From positions 1-12,108 of the forward strand of contig CBDHHL010000017.1 of assembly GCA_965263355.1 (NCBI GenBank): a DNA stretch of 12,108 bases. Direction: 5' to 3'. This DNA is from Leptolyngbyaceae cyanobacterium (GTDB lineage Bacteria; Cyanobacteriota; Cyanobacteriia; Phormidesmidales; Phormidesmidaceae). Under the pieces are notes generated by a model. It saw only the letters and a program-made list of their open reading frames with translations, did not search any database and was not told the DNA's origin. The translations under genes were made by a program, and so were the position numbers. How positions within the stretch are numbered: position 1 is the first letter of the stretch; each line of letters begins with the position of its first letter. Shown piece after piece: positions 1-12,108 of this stretch.

Positions 1-2573
1 ACCAAAATTACCCTCTGATCGCAATGCAAACCTCCGTTTTGACCTAGCTCTCACCGTTTTGCCACCAAACCACTATTTGGGCCCAAAACACCTATTTTCA
101 GCGCTGCTAGTAGTAACTTTCGGCTCCAACCTAAATTTCGACCGCACCATTAGGTGGGGCTCGGGCGAGAGCTTTCAAACGGTATTAATGACTATGGGCG
201 AAAATTACCCCAAGTGGCTCAAAAATGCGAGGATTCGTTTGCTGCCAAGTGGGGATTCCCCAAAAGTTTTAATTTTTCATCGAAACAAATCATTGCAATG
301 ATAGGGGTTTCTAGACCGGAATTTTGCGCTGATCGCAACCGTCAACTCCGTTTTGACCAAACTCGCACCGTTTAGCCCCTAGAGTGCAATTTACGTCCCA
401 AATTTAATGGTCGCCCGAGTACTTTTCTCCCGAAATGAAATTTGGATAGCACCATTGGTTAGGGCTTGGCGAGAGCTTTCAAACGGTATTAATGACCATG
501 GGGCGCAAATTACCCCAAGGGGCTCAAAAAACGCGAAAACAAGTTTGCTGCAAAACCTGGAAAATCTGGGGATTCCCCAAAACATGAAATCTGCCACGAG
601 TGGAGAAAGTGACACTTTGAAAGTGTTTCCTAGACCAAAATTACCCGCTGATCGCAATGCAAACCTCCGTTTGACCTAGCTCTCACCGTTTTGCCACCAA
701 ACCACGATTTTGTGCCCAAAAACACCTATTTTCAGCGCTGCTAGTAGTAACTTTTGGCTCCAACCTAAATTTCGACCGCACCATTAGGTGGGGCTCGGCG
801 AGAGCTTTCAAACGGTATTAATGACTATGGGGCGCAAATTACCCCTAGTGGCTCAAAAATGCGAGGATTCGTTTGCTGCCAATTGGGGATTCCCCAAAAG
901 TTTTAATTTTTCTCGAAACAATCATTGCAATGATAGGGGTTTCTAGACCGGAATTTTGCGCTGATCGCAACCGTCAACTCCGTTTTGACCAAACTCGCAC
1001 CGTTAAGCCCCTAGAGTGCAATTTACGTCCCAAATTTAATGGTCGCCCGAGTACTTTTCTCACCCGAAATGAAATTTGGATAGCACCATTGGATAGGCTT
1101 GGCGAGAGCTTTCAAACGGTATTAATGACCATGGGGCGCAAATTACCCCAAGGGGCTCAAAACGAAAACAAGTTTGCTGCAAAACCTGGAAAATCTGGGG
1201 ATTCCCCAAAACATGAAATCTTGCCACGATGGAGAAAGTGACACTTTGAAAGTGTTTCCTAGACCAAAATTACCCGCTGATCGCAATGCAAACCTCCGTT
1301 TTGACCTAGCTCTCACCGTTTTGCCACCAAACCACGATTTGTGCCCAAAAACACCTATTTTCAGCGCTGCTAGTAGTAACTTTTGGCTCCAACCTAAATT
1401 TCGACCGCACCATTAGGTGGGGCTCGGCGAGAGCTTTCAAACGGTATTAATGACTATGGGGCGCAAATTACCCCAAGTGGCTCAAAAATGCGAGGATTCG
1501 TTTGCTGCCAAGTGGGGATTCCCCAAAAGTTTTAATTTTTCATCGAAACAAATCATTGAAATGATAGGGGTTTCTAGACCGGAATTTTGCGCTGATCGCA
1601 ACCGTCAACTCCGTTTTGACCAAACTCGCACCGTTTAGCCCCTAGAGTGCAATTTACGTCCCAAATTTAATGGTCGCCCGAGTACTTTTCTCCCGAAATG
1701 AAATTTGGATAGCACCATTGGATAGGGCTTGGCGAGAGCTTTCAAACGGTATTAATGACCATGGGGCGCAAATTACCCCAAGGGGCTCAAAAACGCGAAA
1801 ACAAGTTGCTGCAAAACTGGAAAATCTGGGGATTCCCCAAAACATGAAATCTTGCCACGATGGAGAAAGTGACACTTTGAAAGTGTTTCCTAGACCAAAA
1901 TTACCCGCTGATCGCAATGCAAACCTCCGTTTTGACCTAGCTCTCACCGTTTTGCCACCAAACCACGATTTGGGCCCAAAAACACCTATTTTCAGCGCTG
2001 CTAGTAGTAACTTTCGGCTCCAACCTAAATTTCGACCGCACCATTAGGTGGGGCTCGGCGAGAGCTTTCAAACGGTATTAATGACTATGGGGCGCAAATT
2101 ACCCCAAGTGGCTCAAAAATGCGAGGATTCGTTTGCTGCCAAGTGGGGATTCCCCAAAAGTTTAATTTTTCATCGAAACAAATCATTGCAATGATAGGGT
2201 TTCTAGACCGGAATTTTGCGCTGATCGCAACCGTCAACTCCGTCTTGACCAAACTCGCACCGTTTAGCCCTAGAGTGCAATTTACGTCCAAATTTAATGG
2301 TCGCCCGAGTACTTTTCTCCCGAAATGAAATTTGGATAGCACCATTGGATAGGGCTTTGGCGAGAGCTTTCAAACGGTATTAATGACCATGGGGCGCAAA
2401 TTACCCCAAGGGGCTCAAAAACGCGAAAAGAAGTTGCTGCAAAACTGGAAAATCTGGGGATTCCCCAAAACATGAAATCTTGCCACGATGGAGAAAGTGA
2501 CACTTTGAAAGTGTTTCCTAGACCAAAATTACCCGCTGATCGCAATGCAAACCTCCGTTTTGACCTAGCTCTC
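1..2573. repeat. Tandem satellite, ~630-bp unit (heterodimer of ~304 + ~329 bp subunits), left block of ~4 units, runs off the window start
   Basis: The motif ACCAAAATTACCC recurs at 1, 634, 1263, 1894 and 2522 (spacing 628-633). GAGAGCTTTCAAACGG recurs twice per unit (167, 471, 800...). Copies differ mostly by 1-bp homopolymer indels. Confidence 0.97.
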
Positions 2574-3448
2574 CACAGTGGCTTCACAGAGGGTACCATG
2601 AAACCTAAGAAATTTTTTTCAAATCGTTTTTTATATTATTTTTGGAAAATTAACATAAATTAAGTCAATTTAGGCCATTTAAAGAGAAAAAAGTACAATG
2701 GAACTCTTATTTATACCCTGTCAAACTTGACTATGAGAGAGAAAAATGAGAAAATCGAAAAATTTAAAAAAGCTATTTTCTGAGCTTGGGAGTGAAAATT
2801 TGGGTGTATAGCATAAAAGAAAAATGTTTCAAAAAGAAAATTACATAAAAAAAATGCTATAATAATGGCCTCTTATTAAATAATTTTTACTGAAAAACTG
2901 GAAAGTTTGATTTTCAATTTCTAGAAATTTAGTCTTTTTACCGCTTTATGGCGAGAGGGACAACTTGCCGCAATGGCGACCTATATGTCAAAAAACTATG
3001 ATATCTCGTGTATTTTGCCATATGGGTCACATTTGCGGCAAGTTGTCCCCGGCTTGACATTATAATTTTGAAAAAAGGCTCTATTTGGGGCATTTTTTCA
3101 CAAGTAAAATAGCATAACTTTTACTATAAAAAATCATCAAATTCAATTAGTTTTACATATTTTTAGATAGCCATTGGTCTAATCATTAAGTTAAAATCAA
3201 CATGTAATAACAACATTTTCATATAAATATGGCAATTTCATGTCTTAAAGATGACCTATTATTTTTGCATTTTTTTCTAATCAGTCTAATTTCACTCTAG
3301 TACTGAAACAAATTTGCATTTATCTCAAAATTTTATGTAATATATGGGTGCTCAAACTTTCAGGGATTACTTATGCGGGCTATATGAGCAGTTTGAAACA
3401 AAAAACTGATTTTGAAAAAAAATATTTGTTTCATGGGAAACCACTGTG
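2574..3448. mobile_element. Non-autonomous DNA transposon (875 bp), probably Transib/RAG-like superfamily
   Basis: AT-rich insert with termini CACAGTGG (2574) and CCACTGTG (3441-3448). Subterminal inverted motifs CCATGAAAC and T7-8CAAA(A)TC occur at both ends. Flanked by a 5-bp direct repeat CTCTC (2569-2573, 3449-3453) that is single in uninterrupted satellite units. No transposase ORF. CAC termini plus a 5-bp TSD are the known Transib signature. Confidence 0.85.
2957..3049. repeat. Imperfect ~93-bp inverted repeat (hairpin) near the centre of the transposon
   Basis: GGGACAACTTGCCGCAATGGCGACCTATATGTCAAAAAAC pairs with GTATTTTGCCATATGGGTCACATTTGCGGCAAGTTGTCCC. The outer 17 bp are perfect and the centre is at about GATATC (3000-3005). 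Confidence 0.9.
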
Positions 3449-5008
3449 CTCTCACCGTTTTGCCACCAAACCACGATTTGTGCCCAAAAACACCTATTTT
3501 CAGCGCTGCTAGTAGTAACTTTTGGCTCCAACCTAAATTTCGACCACACCATTAGGTGGGGCTCGGCGAGAGCTTTTCAACGGTATTAATGACTATGGGG
3601 CGCAAATTACCCCATGTGCTCAAAATGTGAGGATTCGTTTGCTGCCAAGTGGGGATTCCCCAAAAGTTTTAATTTTTCATCGAAACAAATCATTGCAATG
3701 ATAGGGGTTTCTAGACCGGAATTTTGCGCTGATCGCAACCGTCAACTCCGTTTTGACCAAACTCGCACCGTTAAGCCCCTAGAGTGCAATTTACGTCCCA
3801 AATTTAATGGTCGCCCGAGTACTTTTCTCCCGAAATGAAATTTGGATAGCACCATTGGATAGGGCTTGGCGAGAGCTTTCAACGGTATTAATGACCATGG
3901 GGCGCAAATTACCCCAGAGGGGCTCAAAAACGCGAAAACAAGTTTGCTGCAAAACTGGAAAATCTGGGGATTCCCCAAAACATGAATCTTGCCACGATGG
4001 AGAAAGTGACACTTTGAAAGTGTGTCCTAGACCAAAATTACCCGCTGATCGCAATGCAAACCTCCGTTTTGACCTAGCTTTCACCGTTTTGCCACCAAAC
4101 CACGATTTGTGCCCAAAAAACACCTATTTTCAGCGCTGCTAGTAGTAACTTTCGGCTCCAACCTAAATTTCGACTGCACCATTAGGTGGGGCTCGGCGAG
4201 AGCTTTCAAACGGTATTAATGACTATGGGGCGCAAATTACCCCAAGTGGCTCAAAAATGCGAGGATTCGTTTGCTGCCAAGTGGGGATTCCCCAAAAAGT
4301 TTTAATTTTTCATCGAAAACGAATCATTGCAATGATAGGGGTTTCTAGACCGGAATTTTGCGCTGATCGCAACCGTCAACTCCGTTTTGACCAAACTCGC
4401 ATCGTTTAGCCTCTTAGAGTGCAATTTACGTCCCAAATTTAATGGTCGCCCGAGTACTTTTCTCCCGAAATGAAATTTGGATTGCACCATTGAATAGGGC
4501 TCGGCGAGAGCTTTCAAACGGTATTAATGACCATGGGGCGCAAATTACCCCAAGGGGCTCAAAAAACGCGAAAACAGTTTGCTCCAAAAGCTGGAAAATC
4601 TGGGGATTCCCCAAAACATGAAATCTTGCCACGATGGCAGAAACTGACACTTTGAAAGTGTTTCCTAGACCAAAATTACTCGCTGATCGCAATGCAAACC
4701 TCCGTTTTGACCTAGCTTTCACCGTTTTGCCACCAAACCACGATTTGTGCCCAAAAACACCTATTTTCAGCGCTGCTAGTAGTAACTTTCGGCTCCAACC
4801 TAAATTTCGACTGCACCATTAGGTGGGGCTCGGCGAGAGCTTTCAAACGGTATTAATGACTATGGGGCGCAAATTACCCCAAGTGGCTCAAAAATGCGAG
4901 GATTCGTTTGCTGCCAAGTGGGGATTCCCCAAAAGTTTTAATTTTTCATCGAAACGAATCATTGCAATGATAGGGGTTTCTAGACCGGAATTTTGCGCTG
5001 ATCGCAAC
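3449..5008. repeat. Same satellite, right block of ~2.5 units
   Basis: Resumes in register (CTCTCACCGTTTTGCC) where the left block was interrupted. Ends mid-unit at ...GCTGATCGCAAC (5008). Confidence 0.97.
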
Positions 5009-5129
5009 TATATGCGCTTCCCAATATGTTCATATGTAGTTGTACGATTGAGAGAAATAGAGAGAGCTCAGGCTCAGTCTTGAAACGGATCTCATGCTGT
5101 TCACACCTTGTATTCTTACGCTTCTTACA
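5009..5129 (+). repeat. 5' LTR (lacks the first 8 nt TGTAGAGT, ends ...CTTACA)
   Basis: 5009-5126 matches 11013-11130 at 116/118 positions. Ends in CA immediately before TGG. Confidence 0.95.
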
Positions 5130-5141
5130 TGGCGCACGTCG
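5130..5141 (+). promoter_or_regulatory. Putative primer-binding site TGGCGCACGTCG (priming tRNA not identified)
   Basis: TGG (complement of tRNA CCA) directly follows the LTR-terminal CA. It resembles but does not match the tRNA-Ser-type TGGCGCAGTCG. Confidence 0.7.
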
Positions 5142-5268
5142 TTATAAGAATCTAAGATCGCTCCAACTTTGATAAGTGAAGTGAAATATAAAGTGAGAAG
5201 TGAGAAGAAGAGATAGCACCATAGCCCACTAGTCCAAGAACAGTGAGGGGCCATGGGCCCCGCCAGGG

Positions 5269-8200
5269 ATGTCAACCCCATGGCAGTCACTGCGGGACTC
5301 ACTCTTGGGCACCACACAAGCTGGTGAAAGAGAGGAGGGCGATTCTGAGCTCCTGGCCACGGACTCAGAGGAAGAAGACGTCGTAGTTGTCACTCAGGAC
5401 GAGGAGGAGGCATACGACATCGAGATGGCGGAAACCATAGACGGAATCCGCGCTGGAGGCGACGAGAGGGGAGCTCTGTTTGAGACCCTGAGAGCCAAAA
5501 TGAGGGCCAATAAAACCTGGGTGGGCCGCTGGATTGACCGCGACCTAAAGAGCTGCCTCTCAATGTTGGACAGGCAGGGGCCGTCAGCGGCCAAGCAGGT
5601 TGGCAAAGCCCATCAAGTTCTGGAAAAATTAGAGGACAAGATGGAGACAATCGAGGACCAGCTGGATGAAATGGCACAAATGGTCCCGCAGGTCAGGGAT
5701 GACGCCGACAGAATTAAGAATGAGGTTCACCTGCAAATTACCAGGGCCAGGAATGACGCCCTCAATAAGATTGCCACCTACGAGGCAGGGCAAATGGCAC
5801 AAGCGGCCAGGCCGGCAGCCCCAGCAGCAGGGGACGGCGCGGCAAGACGACAAAAGGTGGACGACTCCTTGAGACCGGCGCAGCTCACCCCTGAGTTCAC
5901 TCCAGCAGAGTTTGATAGCTGGAAAAGGGACTTTACCACGTACTTTAACGCCAACAGGTTGGGAGACGTGGGAGTTCAGATTGAGGAGCAGAGACTCCGC
6001 CTTGACCAGTGCCTCAACCCCCATTTCAAAAGATGGCTGGGACGGGAAAGAGACACAACCACAGCCATTTTGGGAGCTGGAGGCTGTCTCGCTGCTTTAG
6101 AGGATGAGTTCAAGAGACTTTACCCTATGTTCGCCAGGCGTAAACAGTTCTGGTCAATGACGCCCGATAAGGGGGAGGACTTTAAGTCCTTCCGGATGAG
6201 GCTGCGGGAAGTGGGGGACATGTGCGACTTGTCAAACCTCACAGAGGAGCAGTGTTATATTATTAAATATCAAACCACTGTCAACGATGAGGGCCTCAAG
6301 CAGCAACTCATCGCCAATGTCAACAGAAATTTGAGAACCCTGGACGCCACTATAGATGCTTACTTCGCAGCGAAGGCAGGGGAGAGACAAGCCAGCGAAG
6401 GAGCTAGGGTTTGGAAAGCCCAAGAGGGGCAACGAGGCCGAGGAGGCAGAGAACACAGGCAGAGAAGCAAGTCCCCAGGGGGCAAACCAAGGGGAGCATG
6501 CTTCGGGTGTGGTGTGGAGAACCACATCAGGAGAGAGTGTAATTTCAAGAATAACAAATGCTCCTCCTGCGGGAATGTGGGACACCTGCCCAGACACTCA
6601 ACGTGTCCCAACAACAAGGGGTACAGGAAACCCAACAGGAGCCAGACTCCAGGTCCAAGAGCCGCCAAGGTTGAAGAGGGAGCCGAATCCACCGGCATGT
6701 ACCAAGCCTGGCCACCGATGATGCCGCCCACTCCTCAAGGAGGTGAGAGCGCCAATATGATAAGGATGGCGTCCCAGGAGCCCAAGTCCTATGCACAGGC
6801 ATTAGAGGGCGGTAAGAACAGAATATATATTTACCGCAAACCGGTCGATTTGCCTATCATCGACAGCGAAATAATCACAGATCACGAGGCGTTAATTCAC
6901 CCCACTTTTCAAGATACGGGGGCGTCGGCGAACGTTATATCGCACAATTTATTCCTGAAATGGAATCTCAAGTTGCTAGAGGGCTACACAAAGCCCATGT
7001 ACAGCGTGACGGGAGAAAAGATGTCCGTAGAGGGCAGAACGTCACTCAGTATTAGGTCTCGAGAGGGGTTCGAGTTCAAAAGCATAGAATTGGTAGTCAC
7101 CAAAGACACGGCCGACGAAGTAATTATAGGGCTGAAGGACATTAGGAGAACGGGTTTGCTACCCCCCAATTGGCCTCACCAGATTGGATATTGGTCCAAT
7201 GACAGGTGCAATAAGGTCGACAGCGTACAGGCAGAATGCGACGAAGTTAAGAACCGTCTCTGCGACGAATTCAGCGACGTCATCAGTGACGAGATTTCAA
7301 TGGAGAAGATTGTAGGGGAACCGCTTAATATTAAGTTCAAGAAAGGGGTAGCGGTTAGGCCTTATAAACATACTACGGCCAGGCGAATTCCCATTCATCA
7401 GGAGAAAGCAGCTCATGAGTATTTGGGCGACCTGATTCAGAAGGGAATTATCGAGAAAATCGACGATGACGAACCGTGTGATTTCGTAGCACCGGCATTT
7501 TTTGTCCCAAAGGCTAATGGCAAAGTTAGGCTTGTAACGGATTACAAGTACATTAATCAGTTTCTGGACCGCCCAGTCCAGCCGTTTATGTCATCCAGGC
7601 AGATCGTGGATGCTATCAGACCGGAATCGAAGTATTTCGGCGCATTAGACATGGTTCAAGGCTATTATCAAATAGCATTAGATCACGAGAGCTCCAAGCT
7701 CACAACATTCATTTTGCCGGACGGGAAGTACAGATACAAAAGATTGCCCATGGGAATGAATATCGCAGGGGACGTCTGGAACATCAGAACAGATGGCGTG
7801 ATATGCGGGGTCAAGGACGCCCTTAAAATGATCGACGACGTATTAACTCAGGGCATTAACTTAACAGACACGGAAGAGAAACTCCGAAAGGTATTGCTAA
7901 AATGCAGAGAACTGGGCATTACAGTGTCCAGAAGCAAATTTCGAATAGGCCAGGAAGTCGAATTTGTCGGGTATAAAATAGGGGCGGACGGTGTAAGGCC
8001 AAGTAGCAAGAATCTGGACTCCGTTCGCAACTTCCCGGTCCCAAAATGCGTGAAGGACATCCGAGCATTTATGGGGCTAGCAAATCAAATCTCGCATTTT
8101 TCTCCCGACCTTATGCAGAATACCGTGCATTTGAGAGCTCTCCTGAAGAGAGAGAACGCCTTTGTATGGGGAGAAGCACAGGAAAACGATTTTAAACGGG

Positions 8201-10824
8201 CAAAAGAGATTCTTTTGTCCGACGCAGTAGTCAAGCCCTACATGATGGGGTTACGCACAGTATTATATACAGATGCATCCAAATTGCACGGACTGGGGTT
8301 TGCTCTGGTGCAATATGAAAACGAAAGCGAGAAACCCCGGCTTGTCACATGTGGCAGCTGCGCACTTACACCTACACAATCACGTTATGCCGTCTGTGAG
8401 CTAGAAGCGCTCGGTATACAATACGCATTAGAAAAATGTAATCACTATCTCAGGGGCGCACCAAAATTCACGATAGTCACAGATCATCGCCCTTTAGTAG
8501 GTATATGGACAATGGAGCTAGCCGCAATTTCGAACCCGAGACTGCTGCGTCTGCGCTTAAAAACGGTCCCGTACGACTTCGAGCTGATATGGCAACCGGG
8601 GAAGAAGCAGTTGGTCGCCGATGCGTTGAGCCGTTATCCCACGTTCGCCCCGGAGGCGGGTTGCAAAGAATTGGATGAAGCTCACATATATATTTGCAGG
8701 GCAATCACCACCCAGACACCGTGCCGAACTCTTTTAGAGGCCGCCCAGGACAATGAATATATGAAAATTGTGGAATGCGTGGAGAAGGAAGAATGGTCAG
8801 AAATTCAGGAAGGTCACCCAGCCTGGGAGTTGAAGAAGTGGGGACCGTCAATGTCGATTCTAAAAGGTGAGACAGGGGGTGCCCTTGTTTTGGTGGGGGG
8901 AGAGAGAATTCTTGTCCCGCAATCTGCAAGAAAAGCAATTTTGGACATTTTGCATGAAGGCCACCCGGGGGTCACTAAAATGGTGAAAAAAGCAAACTGT
9001 TATTATTTCTGGCCTGGAATGAATAACGAATGCGAGCTCAAGGTCAAGGGCTGTATGGAATGTGTGAAGTTAGCACCATCTCAGCAGAAGCACAAGTTAA
9101 CTGCTGAGAAAGCAATGGCCCCGATGTCCCACATGGGAATTGACCTCTTTTCATGGCAAGGGAAAAATTATTTAGTTGCAGTATGCCGATTTTCGGGTTG
9201 GCCCTTTGTTAAATTAATGCGATCAACAACCACGGATAGCGTATGTAAAACGCTAACAAGCTGGTTCAATAATTTTGGGTGGCCCATTGCAATTCGCACA
9301 GATGGGGGGCCACAATTTCGCGCAATTTTTTCAGAATTCTGCGCATCTCGCAACATTGCTCATGAAACAGCTTCCGCGTACAACGCAGAAGCTAACGGCT
9401 TAGCTGAGGCAGCTGTTAAACAGACCAAGTATTTACTGCAGAAAATAGGAAGCATGGGAGAGAGGTATGACAGAGAGCTTTGCGCGTGGCGCAACACACC
9501 TCGCGCCGACGGGTTTAGCCCTGCCATGCTGATGTTCAATAGGAACATGAAAGAGGAGCGCCTGCCCGTAGCCGCGCCTGCGTTGCGTCTCCAGAGTCAG
9601 GGACACCAGGAATTGGGTGCGCAAGCAAGGCAGGAAGTAAGGGAGCAACAAGTGGGGCACAAGAATCAGGTCAGATTAGAAAGGAAACAGTTAAAAGTAG
9701 GTCAGTTAGTTTTGGTTCAGAACACTGACAACAACCTTTGGGATCAATTCGGCAACATCATTGAAGTTCGACCTGATAACTTGTCCTACTTGGTAAGGTT
9801 GCACAACACTGATCGTATTGTACTACGTGGTAGAGATTTGCTAAAAGATGTCCACCCTGAACTGGAACAGCAAATCAAAACAATAACATTGCAATCTATT
9901 CTTTTACCACCTCGCTTTTCCAGAGCAGTTAAAAAGACAGTAAGATGGGGTTCTTTGATACCGACAACCATCAGGAGGCTCACCAGGAACACGATAATGC
10001 ATACGACACCAACTCCAACAACGGGCTGGTCAACCTGGAAGGGGGCTCAGCAACATTGGCCATCCTGTTGGTCGCAGCCCTCGCCGGGATACCAATTGGG
10101 GTCTGTTTGTGGCGCTGGGTTAAGAAAGACCGAATCCGTCTCAGGGCCCAGTACCCCAACGCCTACGCAGCCTACAAGGCCGAGCGGAAGGAGGACGTCC
10201 GCGAGCTGGCTTGGGGAGGCTCTTGGGGATCAGGGAGCTCCAAGAAACACGACACTTCCAGCATCGAGTGGGGCTGCTCAGGGGCATTGGAGTACCAGCC
10301 CTCTGCCCCAGCACACCAGTATCAGCCCTCTGCCCCAGCACACCCCAGGCACTGGGAGGGACCCAACAAAGAGCGAGACCCCGTCAGGAAGACCAAGGAG
10401 TCTCGTGCCAACAGAGAGGTCAGAGTCAACCGGGAGGCCAGCCCTGGTCCGGAGGTCCACAGGAAGAGGGGGCAGCCTAAGGCTCCTGCACCAGGCCCAA
10501 GCAGGGACCTGTTCCAGCCGCGCCTCGTCACGGCCACAGCTCCAGGAGTGTCTGCCGCCGCCGTCATCGATCTTCAGGGGGCGGTCGCTGAACTCAAGTC
10601 CCTCATGGAGGGGCTCAAGAGCAAGCCGGTCAACACCGCTCGTAGGGAGATACGCGTCGATGCCTCCCCGCTTCGCATCGACGACATCAACATTGAAGAG
10701 TTCGAAGAATGAGCAAGAAGAAAAAGAAGGTGACTGGTTTCAGATCATAAAATTGAAAAGCGGCTACAAGGCTGTACATATTGGACCGCTAAAAACCTCT
10801 GAGTGTGCTAATGAAAGTGAGTAA
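5269..10824 (+). CDS. gag-pol: Gag-Pol polyprotein, 1851 aa, single uninterrupted frame (Gag, aspartic protease, reverse transcriptase, RNase H, integrase, low-complexity tail)
   Basis: Zinc knuckles CFGCGVENHIRREC and CSSCGNVGHLPRHSTC (6499-6606). Protease QDTGAS (D at 6913). RT LDMVQGYYQI, YKRLPMG and MIDD (7828-7839). RNase H TDAS, ELEALGI, TDHRPL, ADALSR. Integrase HEGH..CMEC (8953-9063) and catalytic D (9142), D (9301), E (9406). The start may instead be the ATG at 5425. Confidence 0.96.
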   Translation: MSTPWQSLRDSLLGTTQAGEREEGDSELLATDSEEEDVVVVTQDEEEAYDIEMAETIDGIRAGGDERGALFETLRAKMRANKTWVGRWIDRDLKSCLSMLDRQGPSAAKQVGKAHQVLEKLEDKMETIEDQLDEMAQMVPQVRDDADRIKNEVHLQITRARNDALNKIATYEAGQMAQAARPAAPAAGDGAARRQKVDDSLRPAQLTPEFTPAEFDSWKRDFTTYFNANRLGDVGVQIEEQRLRLDQCLNPHFKRWLGRERDTTTAILGAGGCLAALEDEFKRLYPMFARRKQFWSMTPDKGEDFKSFRMRLREVGDMCDLSNLTEEQCYIIKYQTTVNDEGLKQQLIANVNRNLRTLDATIDAYFAAKAGERQASEGARVWKAQEGQRGRGGREHRQRSKSPGGKPRGACFGCGVENHIRRECNFKNNKCSSCGNVGHLPRHSTCPNNKGYRKPNRSQTPGPRAAKVEEGAESTGMYQAWPPMMPPTPQGGESANMIRMASQEPKSYAQALEGGKNRIYIYRKPVDLPIIDSEIITDHEALIHPTFQDTGASANVISHNLFLKWNLKLLEGYTKPMYSVTGEKMSVEGRTSLSIRSREGFEFKSIELVVTKDTADEVIIGLKDIRRTGLLPPNWPHQIGYWSNDRCNKVDSVQAECDEVKNRLCDEFSDVISDEISMEKIVGEPLNIKFKKGVAVRPYKHTTARRIPIHQEKAAHEYLGDLIQKGIIEKIDDDEPCDFVAPAFFVPKANGKVRLVTDYKYINQFLDRPVQPFMSSRQIVDAIRPESKYFGALDMVQGYYQIALDHESSKLTTFILPDGKYRYKRLPMGMNIAGDVWNIRTDGVICGVKDALKMIDDVLTQGINLTDTEEKLRKVLLKCRELGITVSRSKFRIGQEVEFVGYKIGADGVRPSSKNLDSVRNFPVPKCVKDIRAFMGLANQISHFSPDLMQNTVHLRALLKRENAFVWGEAQENDFKRAKEILLSDAVVKPYMMGLRTVLYTDASKLHGLGFALVQYENESEKPRLVTCGSCALTPTQSRYAVCELEALGIQYALEKCNHYLRGAPKFTIVTDHRPLVGIWTMELAAISNPRLLRLRLKTVPYDFELIWQPGKKQLVADALSRYPTFAPEAGCKELDEAHIYICRAITTQTPCRTLLEAAQDNEYMKIVECVEKEEWSEIQEGHPAWELKKWGPSMSILKGETGGALVLVGGERILVPQSARKAILDILHEGHPGVTKMVKKANCYYFWPGMNNECELKVKGCMECVKLAPSQQKHKLTAEKAMAPMSHMGIDLFSWQGKNYLVAVCRFSGWPFVKLMRSTTTDSVCKTLTSWFNNFGWPIAIRTDGGPQFRAIFSEFCASRNIAHETASAYNAEANGLAEAAVKQTKYLLQKIGSMGERYDRELCAWRNTPRADGFSPAMLMFNRNMKEERLPVAAPALRLQSQGHQELGAQARQEVREQQVGHKNQVRLERKQLKVGQLVLVQNTDNNLWDQFGNIIEVRPDNLSYLVRLHNTDRIVLRGRDLLKDVHPELEQQIKTITLQSILLPPRFSRAVKKTVRWGSLIPTTIRRLTRNTIMHTTPTPTTGWSTWKGAQQHWPSCWSQPSPGYQLGSVCGAGLRKTESVSGPSTPTPTQPTRPSGRRTSASWLGEALGDQGAPRNTTLPASSGAAQGHWSTSPLPQHTSISPLPQHTPGTGRDPTKSETPSGRPRSLVPTERSESTGRPALVRRSTGRGGSLRLLHQAQAGTCSSRASSRPQLQECLPPPSSIFRGRSLNSSPSWRGSRASRSTPLVGRYASMPPRFASTTSTLKSSKNEQEEKEGDWFQIIKLKSGYKAVHIGPLKTSECANESE
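9898..9923 (+). promoter_or_regulatory. Candidate 3' splice acceptor for a subgenomic ORF2 mRNA
   Basis: ATTCTTTTACCACCTCGCTTTTCCAG is a pyrimidine tract ending in CAG on an otherwise purine-rich strand, 21 nt before the ORF2 ATG. Possible branch point ATAAC at ~9883. Confidence 0.55.
9945..10712 (+). CDS. ORF2: 255-aa putative small single-pass membrane protein overlapping the pol tail in another frame
   Basis: ATG in good context (AAGATGG). Codons are strongly C/G-ending in this frame, as in gag. Hydrophobic segment ATLAILLVAALAGIPIGVCLW (10050-10112) followed by basic RWVKKDRIRLR, two YQPSAPAH repeats and an amphipathic C-terminal helix. Confidence 0.78.
   Translation: MGFFDTDNHQEAHQEHDNAYDTNSNNGLVNLEGGSATLAILLVAALAGIPIGVCLWRWVKKDRIRLRAQYPNAYAAYKAERKEDVRELAWGGSWGSGSSKKHDTSSIEWGCSGALEYQPSAPAHQYQPSAPAHPRHWEGPNKERDPVRKTKESRANREVRVNREASPGPEVHRKRGQPKAPAPGPSRDLFQPRLVTATAPGVSAAAVIDLQGAVAELKSLMEGLKSKPVNTARREIRVDASPLRIDDINIEEFEE
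10291..10344 (+). repeat. 27-bp tandem duplication (2 copies) encoding the two PSAP motifs
   Basis: AGTACCAGCCCTCTGCCCCAGCACACC / AGTATCAGCCCTCTGCCCCAGCACACC. The one internal mismatch is synonymous in the ORF2 frame (TAC/TAT). Confidence 0.95.
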
Positions 10825-10996
10825 AAAAGTCAGTCAAGCCCTACAGAGGGGGGCTTTTGTGAAACAGAGTGCCAAAGAAGACTGTGATTGGAATCAAGTG
10901 ATAGTAAATGCAATTTTGTCAGAATGTCAGTGCAGTACTACATTGTCAGTAACATGTAAATTTTTGTCTTTGGAACTTTCCTTGGACTTTTTGACT

Positions 10997-11004
10997 GGGG
11001 GAGG
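10997..11004 (+). promoter_or_regulatory. Polypurine tract GGGGGAGG
   Basis: Purine run immediately before the TG that starts the 3' LTR. Confidence 0.85.
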
Positions 11005-11130
11005 TGTAGAGTTATATGCGCTTCCCAATATGTTCATATGTAGTTGTACGATTGAGAGAAATAGAGAGAGCTCAGGCTCAGTTGTGAAACGGATCTCATG
11101 CTGTTCACACCTTGTATTCTTACGCTTCTT
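11005..11130 (+). repeat. 3' LTR (starts TGTAGAG, lacks the last 3 nt ACA)
   Basis: Direct repeat of the 5' LTR. The reconstructed full LTR is 129 bp, TGTA...TACA. Confidence 0.95.
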
Positions 11131-11621
11131 GGGTTTATGTATGTGTGTATGTATATTTCAGCTAGGTTATCACAATGAGTGCATTAAAAGCTTGATTAAA
11201 TTAGAACTAAATATAATGTACTTCATAAACTACATCTGCATTTTGAAAACACATTTGGAGAAAATTATTTTGCCTTGATTTGGGTGGAAGAAAAATAGAA
11301 AAATGCATCATCCTAAACCAAAACATTTTCTGCCCTCAATTCCTTACAAAAAACAATTTGCCAACATTTTTCTATGTTTTAAAGTTTTCATTGCAGAGAA
11401 AGCTAAAATGTGCTCCAAAAACTTTTTGCTACTTTTTTGATAATGTTTTGACAGCCTGAGATTGTTTAGGAGCTGTTTTCTGGCACCTTAATGACTGACT
11501 ATTATGGGGATAGAAATAAGAGCCCTCCTAGAGTTAAAAAGCAAAATTTGAAAATAGATGCCTCTCAAAATTGTTAATATTAATATCAAAAACCCAGGTT
11601 TGATGCAATTTTGCCTGCTTA

Positions 11622-11818
11622 GGGGCGAAGCACACTAGCTATATGCCGTCAATAGTTCATCTTATTTCATCAATATTGATGATATATTGACAGCAAATTA
11701 CAAAAAAAAATATTTTTCCTATACATACAACAATTTTTTTTATTAATTTTATGGCAATATCTATATTGATGAAATATAGTTAAAATATTGACGGCATATA
11801 GTAGGTGTGCTAGCGCCC
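11622..11818. mobile_element. ~200-bp palindromic MITE, possibly PIF/Harbinger-derived
   Basis: Imperfect inverted arms of ~70 bp: GGGGCGAAGCACACTAGCTATATGCCGTCAATA...TATTGACGGCATATAGTAGGTGTGCTAGCGCCC. TTA on both flanks (11619-11621, 11819-11821), with the boundary uncertain by 1 bp. Confidence 0.75.
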
Positions 11819-12108
11819 TTAATATAGCTTTAATTTATACTTCCATGTTCCTGTAGCTGGAAGGAAAAAGCAAAAAAAAGGAAATTGAAGTTGTTGTTAG
11901 TTCATATTGTGCATTGAGTCTGAGCAAAAAAGGCCCTGAAATTGATTGCCAACATATTTATCAAAACTCAATCTTAATTGTTAGTTAACCATTATTTTAT
12001 ATTGACCACTTTGAATTGGTTCTTGCACCTAACTTCCTTTTTTTCTTTTCATGAATTCATTCAAATGCTAAGACAGACACTCAAAATTCAGAGGAATAAA
12101 TTTGATTC

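Follow-up and report, generated by a model that had tools for sequence, protein, structure and literature searches.

A predicted membrane protein gene overprinted on the Gag-Pol tail of a Ty3/gypsy element, and its polymorphic PSAP duplication

The window analysed here is a stretch of 12,108 nucleotides (GenBank assembly GCA_965263355.1, contig CBDHHL010000017.1, positions 1 to 12,108 of the forward strand) deposited under the name of a Leptolyngbyaceae cyanobacterium, and it carries a long terminal repeat (LTR) retrotransposon of the Ty3/gypsy type (Metaviridae), as the order protease, reverse transcriptase (RT), RNase H and integrase between two LTRs indicates. The element encodes Gag-Pol in one frame and, within the last part of that frame, a second protein, ORF2, whose predicted cytoplasmic tail holds a tandem duplication with two copies of the tetrapeptide PSAP (Table 1), a form of the P-T/S-A-P late-domain word (P[ST]AP below). 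An initial annotation, made from the letters of the window, had proposed that this motif recruits the endosomal sorting complex required for transport (ESCRT) through TSG101 and so releases capsids in vesicles.

Table 1. Features of the window, with positions in nucleotides from its first letter.
Feature	Position	Strand	Remarks
Satellite array, left flank	1..5008	.	Units of ~630 bp (two related ~315 bp halves); interrupted at 2574-3448
Ty3/gypsy element between two short LTRs	5009-5129 and 11005-11130	+	LTRs identical at 116/118 shared bases
5' LTR	5009..5129	+	First 8 nt of the 3' copy missing; TGG, primer-binding-like, next at 5130
Gag-Pol	5269..10824	+	Single stop-free frame, 1851 aa; Gag to integrase, then an extension overlapping the whole of ORF2
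Gag-Pol zinc knuckles	about 6496-6633	+	
Gag-Pol protease	6910-7137	+	
Gag-Pol RT	7504-7980	+	
Gag-Pol RNase H	8167-8559	+	
Gag-Pol integrase	8914-9384	+	
Splice-acceptor-like site	9904..9923	+	Predicted only; 21 nt upstream of the ORF2 start
ORF2	9945..10712	+	255 aa; has homologues; excess of synonymous differences
ORF2 layout, N-terminal part			MGxxxT myristoylation motif (candidate), 36-aa ectodomain, membrane helix 37-55, basic patch, conserved juxtamembrane helix
ORF2 layout, C-terminal part			Variable linker with PSAP, amphipathic helix about 204-226, acidic end
27-bp tandem duplication	10291..10344	+	Two PSAP in the ORF2 frame; polymorphic between copies
Conserved 20-residue Pol-frame motif EGDWFQ...GYKAVHIG	10726..10785	+	Behind the ORF2 stop; no known family
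3' LTR	11005..11130	+	Begins TG after the purine tract 10997-11004; last 3 nt of the 5' copy missing

ORF2 is a real gene and its frame is under selection. For 10140-10500, 31 differences were listed across three public runs from a single study; 22 of them are synonymous for ORF2 and 5 for Pol. In comparison with a sister subfamily of elements the ORF2 frame shows identities of 58-67% in the ectodomain, 60-75% in the membrane helix and 76% in the juxtamembrane stretch, as against 33-42%, 45-60% and 35-47% for the Pol frame over the same DNA. Overall, ORF2 is about 45% identical to its sister-subfamily counterparts; identity falls from 58-76% over residues 1-90 to 36-40% in the PSAP-bearing linker and 19-30% elsewhere. 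A homologue search with ORF2 returned 6 proteins among 1614 candidates (1 from its own subfamily and 5 from the sister subfamily); a profile search across 1.84 billion representatives returned 5 matches, all within these two subfamilies, and the profile found no relative among 596 and 190 pattern matches in metagenome and viral contigs, respectively. Neither ORF2 nor the Pol extension nor any of four relatives could be placed in a Pfam family at a useful E-value, and the ESM Atlas gave no match at 0.9 or above.

The protein begins MGFFDT and has a single hydropathy peak, at residues 37-55 (mean 2.5), behind which 6 of 15 residues are basic; P0004, P0006 and P0008 likewise give a count of 6. 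The N-terminal motif suggests that ORF2 is myristoylated, and the basic patch points to an N-out/C-in topology. The sORF2 proteins of insect LTR retrotransposons are recognised by an MGxxxS/T start followed by an ectodomain of 10-50 residues, a single membrane helix and at least 3 K/R within the next 15 residues; the window ORF2 has all of these, and P0008, with one extra residue, falls outside the strict pattern. The sORF2 criteria further include amphipathic motifs in the ectodomain and the endodomain. Here the endodomain helix has a moment of 0.59-0.76 and lies far from the membrane, and the ectodomain gives moments of 0.30-0.41 as a helix and 0.55-0.71 as a strand. The AlphaFold model is weak (mean pLDDT 46), with values below 50 at residues 87-200, that is, low predicted order around PSAP, and a complex prediction for Gag 1-404 with the ORF2 tail returned no answer (score 0.00) and counts neither way. 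The acceptor-like site at 9923 has a pyrimidine fraction of 0.8, a score equalled by 2 of 59 sites in Gag-Pol; no enrichment of such a site was found in related loci (2/19 vs 34/353 background windows), nor any joint indicating splicing in the contigs of the public runs.

The Pol frame is open across all of ORF2. It has no stop there, as against 3.9 expected under synonymous codon shuffling (P = 0.0016) and 11.5 expected with the codon use of Gag-Pol, and ORF2 avoids the codons that would generate one (12/48 vs 200/397). A comparable overlap exists in human immunodeficiency virus type 1 (HIV-1), where the pol frame runs across p6. Behind the ORF2 stop, Pol-frame identity to the sister subfamily is 46-51%, compared with 27-32% in the overlapped tail before it, and the motif at this tip occurs in 12 of the 13 Pol-frame proteins of the sister subfamily and in 4 of the 6 own-subfamily proteins read at the site, the remainder changing frame on the way. 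It had no match in Pfam or among PDB sequences.

The initial annotation had described an in-frame 27-bp duplication that places two PSAP words in the predicted cytoplasmic tail, and this description stands. The units, 10291-10317 and 10318-10344, are identical at 26 of 27 nucleotides (Tandem Repeats Finder score 101) and read EYQPSAPAH-QYQPSAPAH in the ORF2 frame; in the register used by that annotation, their single mismatch is synonymous in ORF2. PSAP falls at 10299-10310 and 10326-10337 (residues 119-122 and 128-131), 63 and 72 residues C-terminal of the membrane helix. The exact late-domain word is present in two copies, and its exposure to the cytosol is predicted from its place behind the membrane helix and basic patch, in low-confidence coil. 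These two copies are one event and not two independent gains; the doubling is a polymorphic duplication that likely came from a copying slip. The duplication is also read in the Pol frame, which the initial annotation did not mention. Because two frames share the DNA of ORF2, surviving insertions and deletions must be multiples of three whatever they encode, and the in-frame length of the duplication is therefore no sign of selection for PSAP. On the plus strand of 5000-11200 there are no P[ST]AP words besides these two, and one more lies on the minus strand, in RT. At least one such word arises by chance in 1.3% of shuffled ORF2 sequences counted with one unit and in 1.6% of shuffled tails. 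The annotation was likewise correct that Gag has no P(T/S)AP: a scan of Gag-Pol for P[ST]AP, PPxY, LPxY and YPxnL found none. However, shuffled Gag contains at least one P[ST]AP in 1.0% of cases, so that absence from Gag is the chance expectation and carries no weight; we rejected it as evidence.

The distribution of the motif was followed in copies counted from protein clusters and public contigs, leaving aside two sister records, P0009 (frame-switched) and P0082 (no aligned site). In the subfamily of the window element, and besides the window itself, two units are found in 3 of 8 records (P0022, P0025 and P0028, the last switching frame between units) and one unit in 5 of 8 (P0005, P0011, P0014, P0029 and P0030), and one contig of run X3 is without the 27 bases. 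Every own-subfamily record keeps PSAP or a Pol-frame reading compatible with it. In the sister subfamily P[ST]AP is absent from 19 of 19 records: the ORF2-frame proteins have PEPK, PDKP or PDLP at the site (6/6), and the Pol-frame proteins are incompatible with P[ST]AP in the ORF2 frame (13/13), 12 of these 13 being open to the end. The two sister ORF2 tails scanned contain neither PPxY nor YPxnL. The blocks that flank the site (IEWG..GALE and WEGPNKE) are conserved and the middle varies, with other insertions of 4 residues in P0006 and 3 bases in run X2.

Genes of this kind extend to a wider clade. With a detection pattern written after inspection of the locus sequences, a comparable open reading frame was found behind integrase in 28 of 80 metagenome loci, the best of at least 173 confirmed with an integrase profile, and the share becomes 25 of 43 when 1100 or more downstream nucleotides are required; five viral_contigs loci, being short integrase-like matches, were excluded from all counts. 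A profile search added 17 proteins, all from families already seen. The encoded proteins often start with MG and combine a conserved strand-like motif of the SGFH.LE.H type with a single helix, basic residues and a tail rich in proline; among the 25 with a start, 12 have MGxxxS/T and 17 MG, and 19 of 28 have at least three basic residues behind the helix. The profile of the window family aligns with that of the clade over the strand-like motif and the helix (E 0.0001, probability 57.5%). The Pol frame overlaps ORF2 in 10 of 28 loci (L005, L031, L034, L035, L045 and L043, L053, L055, L056, L072), some of the loci having broken frames. Both possible frame relations are seen, pointing to more than one origin of the overprinting.

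P[ST]AP and PPxY were counted in this clade after dropping P0099 (a fragment) and P0084 (identical to L056). PPxY occurs in 2 of 21 families (tails of L031, L034, L035, L045 and L056), not above the 1.0-1.8 expected, YPxnL in 0 of 22 as against 1.4 expected, and 16 of 21 families have neither P[ST]AP nor PPxY. Only a quick tree was made, with most deep forks open; hence we claim no order of PSAP gain or loss. A separate motif, R-hydrophobic-x-D/E-hydrophobic (RFEEL, RFTDV, RIDDI), is more widespread than any late-domain motif, occurring in 8 of 21 families as against 0.5-0.9 expected with a pattern that was defined post hoc; its carriers are L001, L003, L022, L031/34/35, L036, L043, L056 and the window protein at residues about 244-248. 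A likeness of R-F-E-E-L to an ESCRT MIT-binding motif, for which no paper was found, was put to no use here.

We lean towards reading ORF2 as a conserved, myristoylated single-pass membrane protein, overprinted on the Gag-Pol tail, that likely aids the passage of capsids from cell to cell and for which PSAP is likely dispensable. ORF2 would be made from a spliced RNA, with the predicted acceptor at 9923, would sit myristoylated and N-out in the plasma membrane, and would help capsids to cross into a touching cell, as has been proposed for Drosophila sORF2. PSAP would be an optional addition to a loose linker; its doubling, likely a copying slip, is tolerated in both frames. Weak TSG101 binding, of which such peptides are capable, may occur and yet not be the cause of release. 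Several observations weigh against this reading. A fusion role is suggested by layout, in a protein that exceeds the published size limits for sORF2, and fusion could not be demonstrated in the cell assays of the sORF2 study (10.1101/2025.03.14.642691). The chance of PSAP in a protein of ORF2 composition is about 1.5%. The motif is kept in 9 of 9 own-subfamily records covering the site, no difference is listed at 10299-10337 among the public-run contigs, and the Pol-frame changes of P0025 and P0030 would leave the ORF2 protein unaltered. Across the clade, PSAP is the commonest PxxP word in the tails and P[ST]AP is found in 3 of 21 families (46 tails), as against 0.40-0.84 expected from shuffles (P = 0.009-0.043), one of them a distant family with IELGPLRYE-PSAP (3/10 members), near the window's IEWGCSGALEYQ-PSAP, with which hhalign pairs it unaided, if weakly (E 0.004, probability 8.7%).

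Retention in the own subfamily and recurrence in three families, once in a similar Y-E-PSAP context, would also suit a different role, in which PSAP functions to sort ORF2 itself by binding TSG101, having arisen in the own subfamily and been strengthened by duplication. ORF2 would then be sent to endosomal or released vesicles, for turnover or as vesicles capable of fusion, and capsids would not be wrapped. The motif is exact, predicted cytosolic and disordered, p10, a fusion-associated small transmembrane (FAST) protein of avian reovirus, leaves cells in vesicles positive for TSG101 (PMC10384003), and in HIV-1 a doubled PTAP reportedly strengthens the binding of TSG101 (PMC8402826). We nevertheless regard a sorting signal as unlikely, if worth keeping in mind. 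The motif is labile in both other families that carry it, being present in 3/10 and 5/9 members and elsewhere replaced by SSAP, PAAT, SAAT or none. The count depends on the member chosen, falling to 0 of 21 when the longest represents each family, and without the window family it is 2 of 20 (P = 0.055-0.19). Per 1000 residues of the same DNA, in the 28 loci only, P[ST]AP reaches 0.31 in the ORF2 tails, 0.95 in the two other plus frames and 0 in the three minus frames; it beats shuffles marginally and does not beat the other frames.

The release of capsids by way of ESCRT, as the initial annotation had it, holds up in part: the motif is exact, disordered and predicted cytosolic, and there are precedents, but it is missing throughout the sister subfamily and not clearly enriched. 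That annotation had looked to conservation of PSAP in ORF2 homologues, and its absence there would count against the proposal; conservation extends through the own subfamily (9/9) and fails in the sister subfamily (0/19) and in all but 3 of 21 families. We thus conclude that recruiting ESCRT by way of PSAP cannot be a general release route for such elements, given the lack of the motif in the sister subfamily and of a clear late-domain enrichment. In its most explicit form the proposal makes ORF2 an adaptor like ORF3 of hepatitis E virus (HEV) or NS3 of bluetongue virus, which would bind capsids and recruit ESCRT-I so that env-less capsids leave in vesicles and not through a fusion synapse. 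The layout is the same, with a membrane protein, a cytosolic PSAP and a capsid protein lacking a late domain (P[ST]AP or PPxY in 0 of 12 related Gag-Pol proteins), and HEV ORF3 binds capsid and, through its PSAP, TSG101 (PMC6631228). Such an adaptor nonetheless seems to us improbable, because close relatives with open frames do without PSAP and nothing ties ORF2 to capsids; moreover, two sister tails have no PPxY or YPxnL, 16 of 21 families have neither P[ST]AP nor PPxY, the lack of a late domain in Gag is expected by chance, and the best-conserved parts of ORF2 are the ectodomain, the membrane helix and the juxtamembrane helix, not PSAP. Alternatively, one could envision an accessory membrane protein of another kind, such as a channel, a signalling decoy or a membrane anchor for capsid assembly, to which PSAP would be irrelevant or secondary. 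The tail of 200 residues, beyond the sORF2 limit of 150, an ectodomain without an amphipathic helix (moment 0.31) and the failure to obtain any sequence link between ORF2 and a FAST or sORF2 protein would be consistent with this, but we give it little credence, as the N-terminal layout of start motif, ectodomain of 30-50 residues, single helix and basic patch recurs in the clade at the frequencies given above. A bolder combination, in which ORF2 recruits ESCRT-I through an amplifying PSAP, wraps capsids into a quasi-enveloped particle and fuses with target cells by a FAST-like front, while the Pol tip tethers capsid to membrane and other families use PPxY or other short motifs, likewise seems improbable to us.

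Should ORF2 work like sORF2, env-independent transfer between cells would extend beyond the insect elements described to a wide clade in metagenome assemblies, comprising longer proteins that the published size filter would miss; at 10 of the 28 loci the gene is overprinted on Pol. The natural series of two units, one unit and none on one scaffold makes a role of ESCRT directly testable. In the longer term, the doubled PSAP matters less than the overprinted gene and the conserved tip of Pol. No report of a late-domain motif in a retrotransposon membrane protein was found in a literature search that left most subscription papers outside its scope and judged most matches by their listing.

The copy in the window is rearranged or misjoined, since its LTRs lack 8 and 3 nucleotides at their outer ends and its flanks do not match; intact TG...CA ends and a target-site duplication were not found. 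Satellite lies on the left and unique DNA on the right (clip zones 5009-5016 and 11128-11133), and the satellite continues past 5008 in contigs from all three public runs. The AT-rich flanks and the satellite point to a eukaryotic host, probably an animal. The element may belong to the Mag clade of Ty3/gypsy. The N-terminal region of Gag (5269-5800) opens with a conserved short helix, from which an acidic linker leads to a long bundle of predicted helices, and the capsid-like part follows; a structure model of Gag (pLDDT 67.5) had no fold match at E 0.001 or better, with retroviral capsids among the weak rows. The insertion that interrupts the satellite is 875 bp long and AT-rich, with CACAGTG ends, a 5-bp target duplication (CTCTC) and a second shared block, CCATGAAAC, at unequal distances from the two ends, and is presumably a non-autonomous Transib or RAG-like DNA transposon. 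Long imperfect inverted repeats at 2957-3049 and 11629-11811, with arms of 40 and 34 nucleotides and inner pairs, are probably small non-autonomous DNA elements.

Among known systems, HEV ORF3 and bluetongue NS3 resemble ORF2 as small membrane-bound accessory proteins of non-enveloped particles that use a TSG101 route, with PSAP in ORF3 (PMC6631228, PMC10384003), although there is no sequence relation; binding to capsid and to TSG101 has been demonstrated for them, whereas the window ORF2 is known from its sequence and its motif is missing in the sister subfamily. HIV-1 p6 offers a parallel for a polymorphic in-frame duplication of a stretch bearing P(T/S)AP, but there the motif lies in Gag and is conserved in all subtypes (PMC8402826), while here it lies in a separate membrane protein of one subfamily. 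Reovirus FAST proteins have a comparable ectodomain, membrane helix, basic patch and proline-rich endodomain, some of them being myristoylated (PMC12945298, PMC10384003); they differ in their size of about 100-200 residues and in a demonstrated fusion activity, which for the longer ORF2 is hypothetical. The nearest likeness in setting is to insect sORF2, with an env-less Ty3/gypsy element, a forward reading frame, MGxxxS/T, an ectodomain near 30 residues, one helix and a basic patch. Voichek et al. (10.1101/2025.03.14.642691) set limits of 60-210 residues with a tail below 150, obtained matches of 63-107 residues and report a position behind pol in 7 of 22 lepidopteran cases; their main text makes no mention of ESCRT, PSAP, PTAP, late domains or budding. 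The window ORF2, with its 255 residues and a cytoplasmic part of 200, exceeds both limits, is wholly overlapped by an open Pol frame and carries PSAP. Because it falls outside the published limits of length and tail, we regard ORF2 as a variant that likely works like the sORF2 and FAST proteins, and not as a member of either group.

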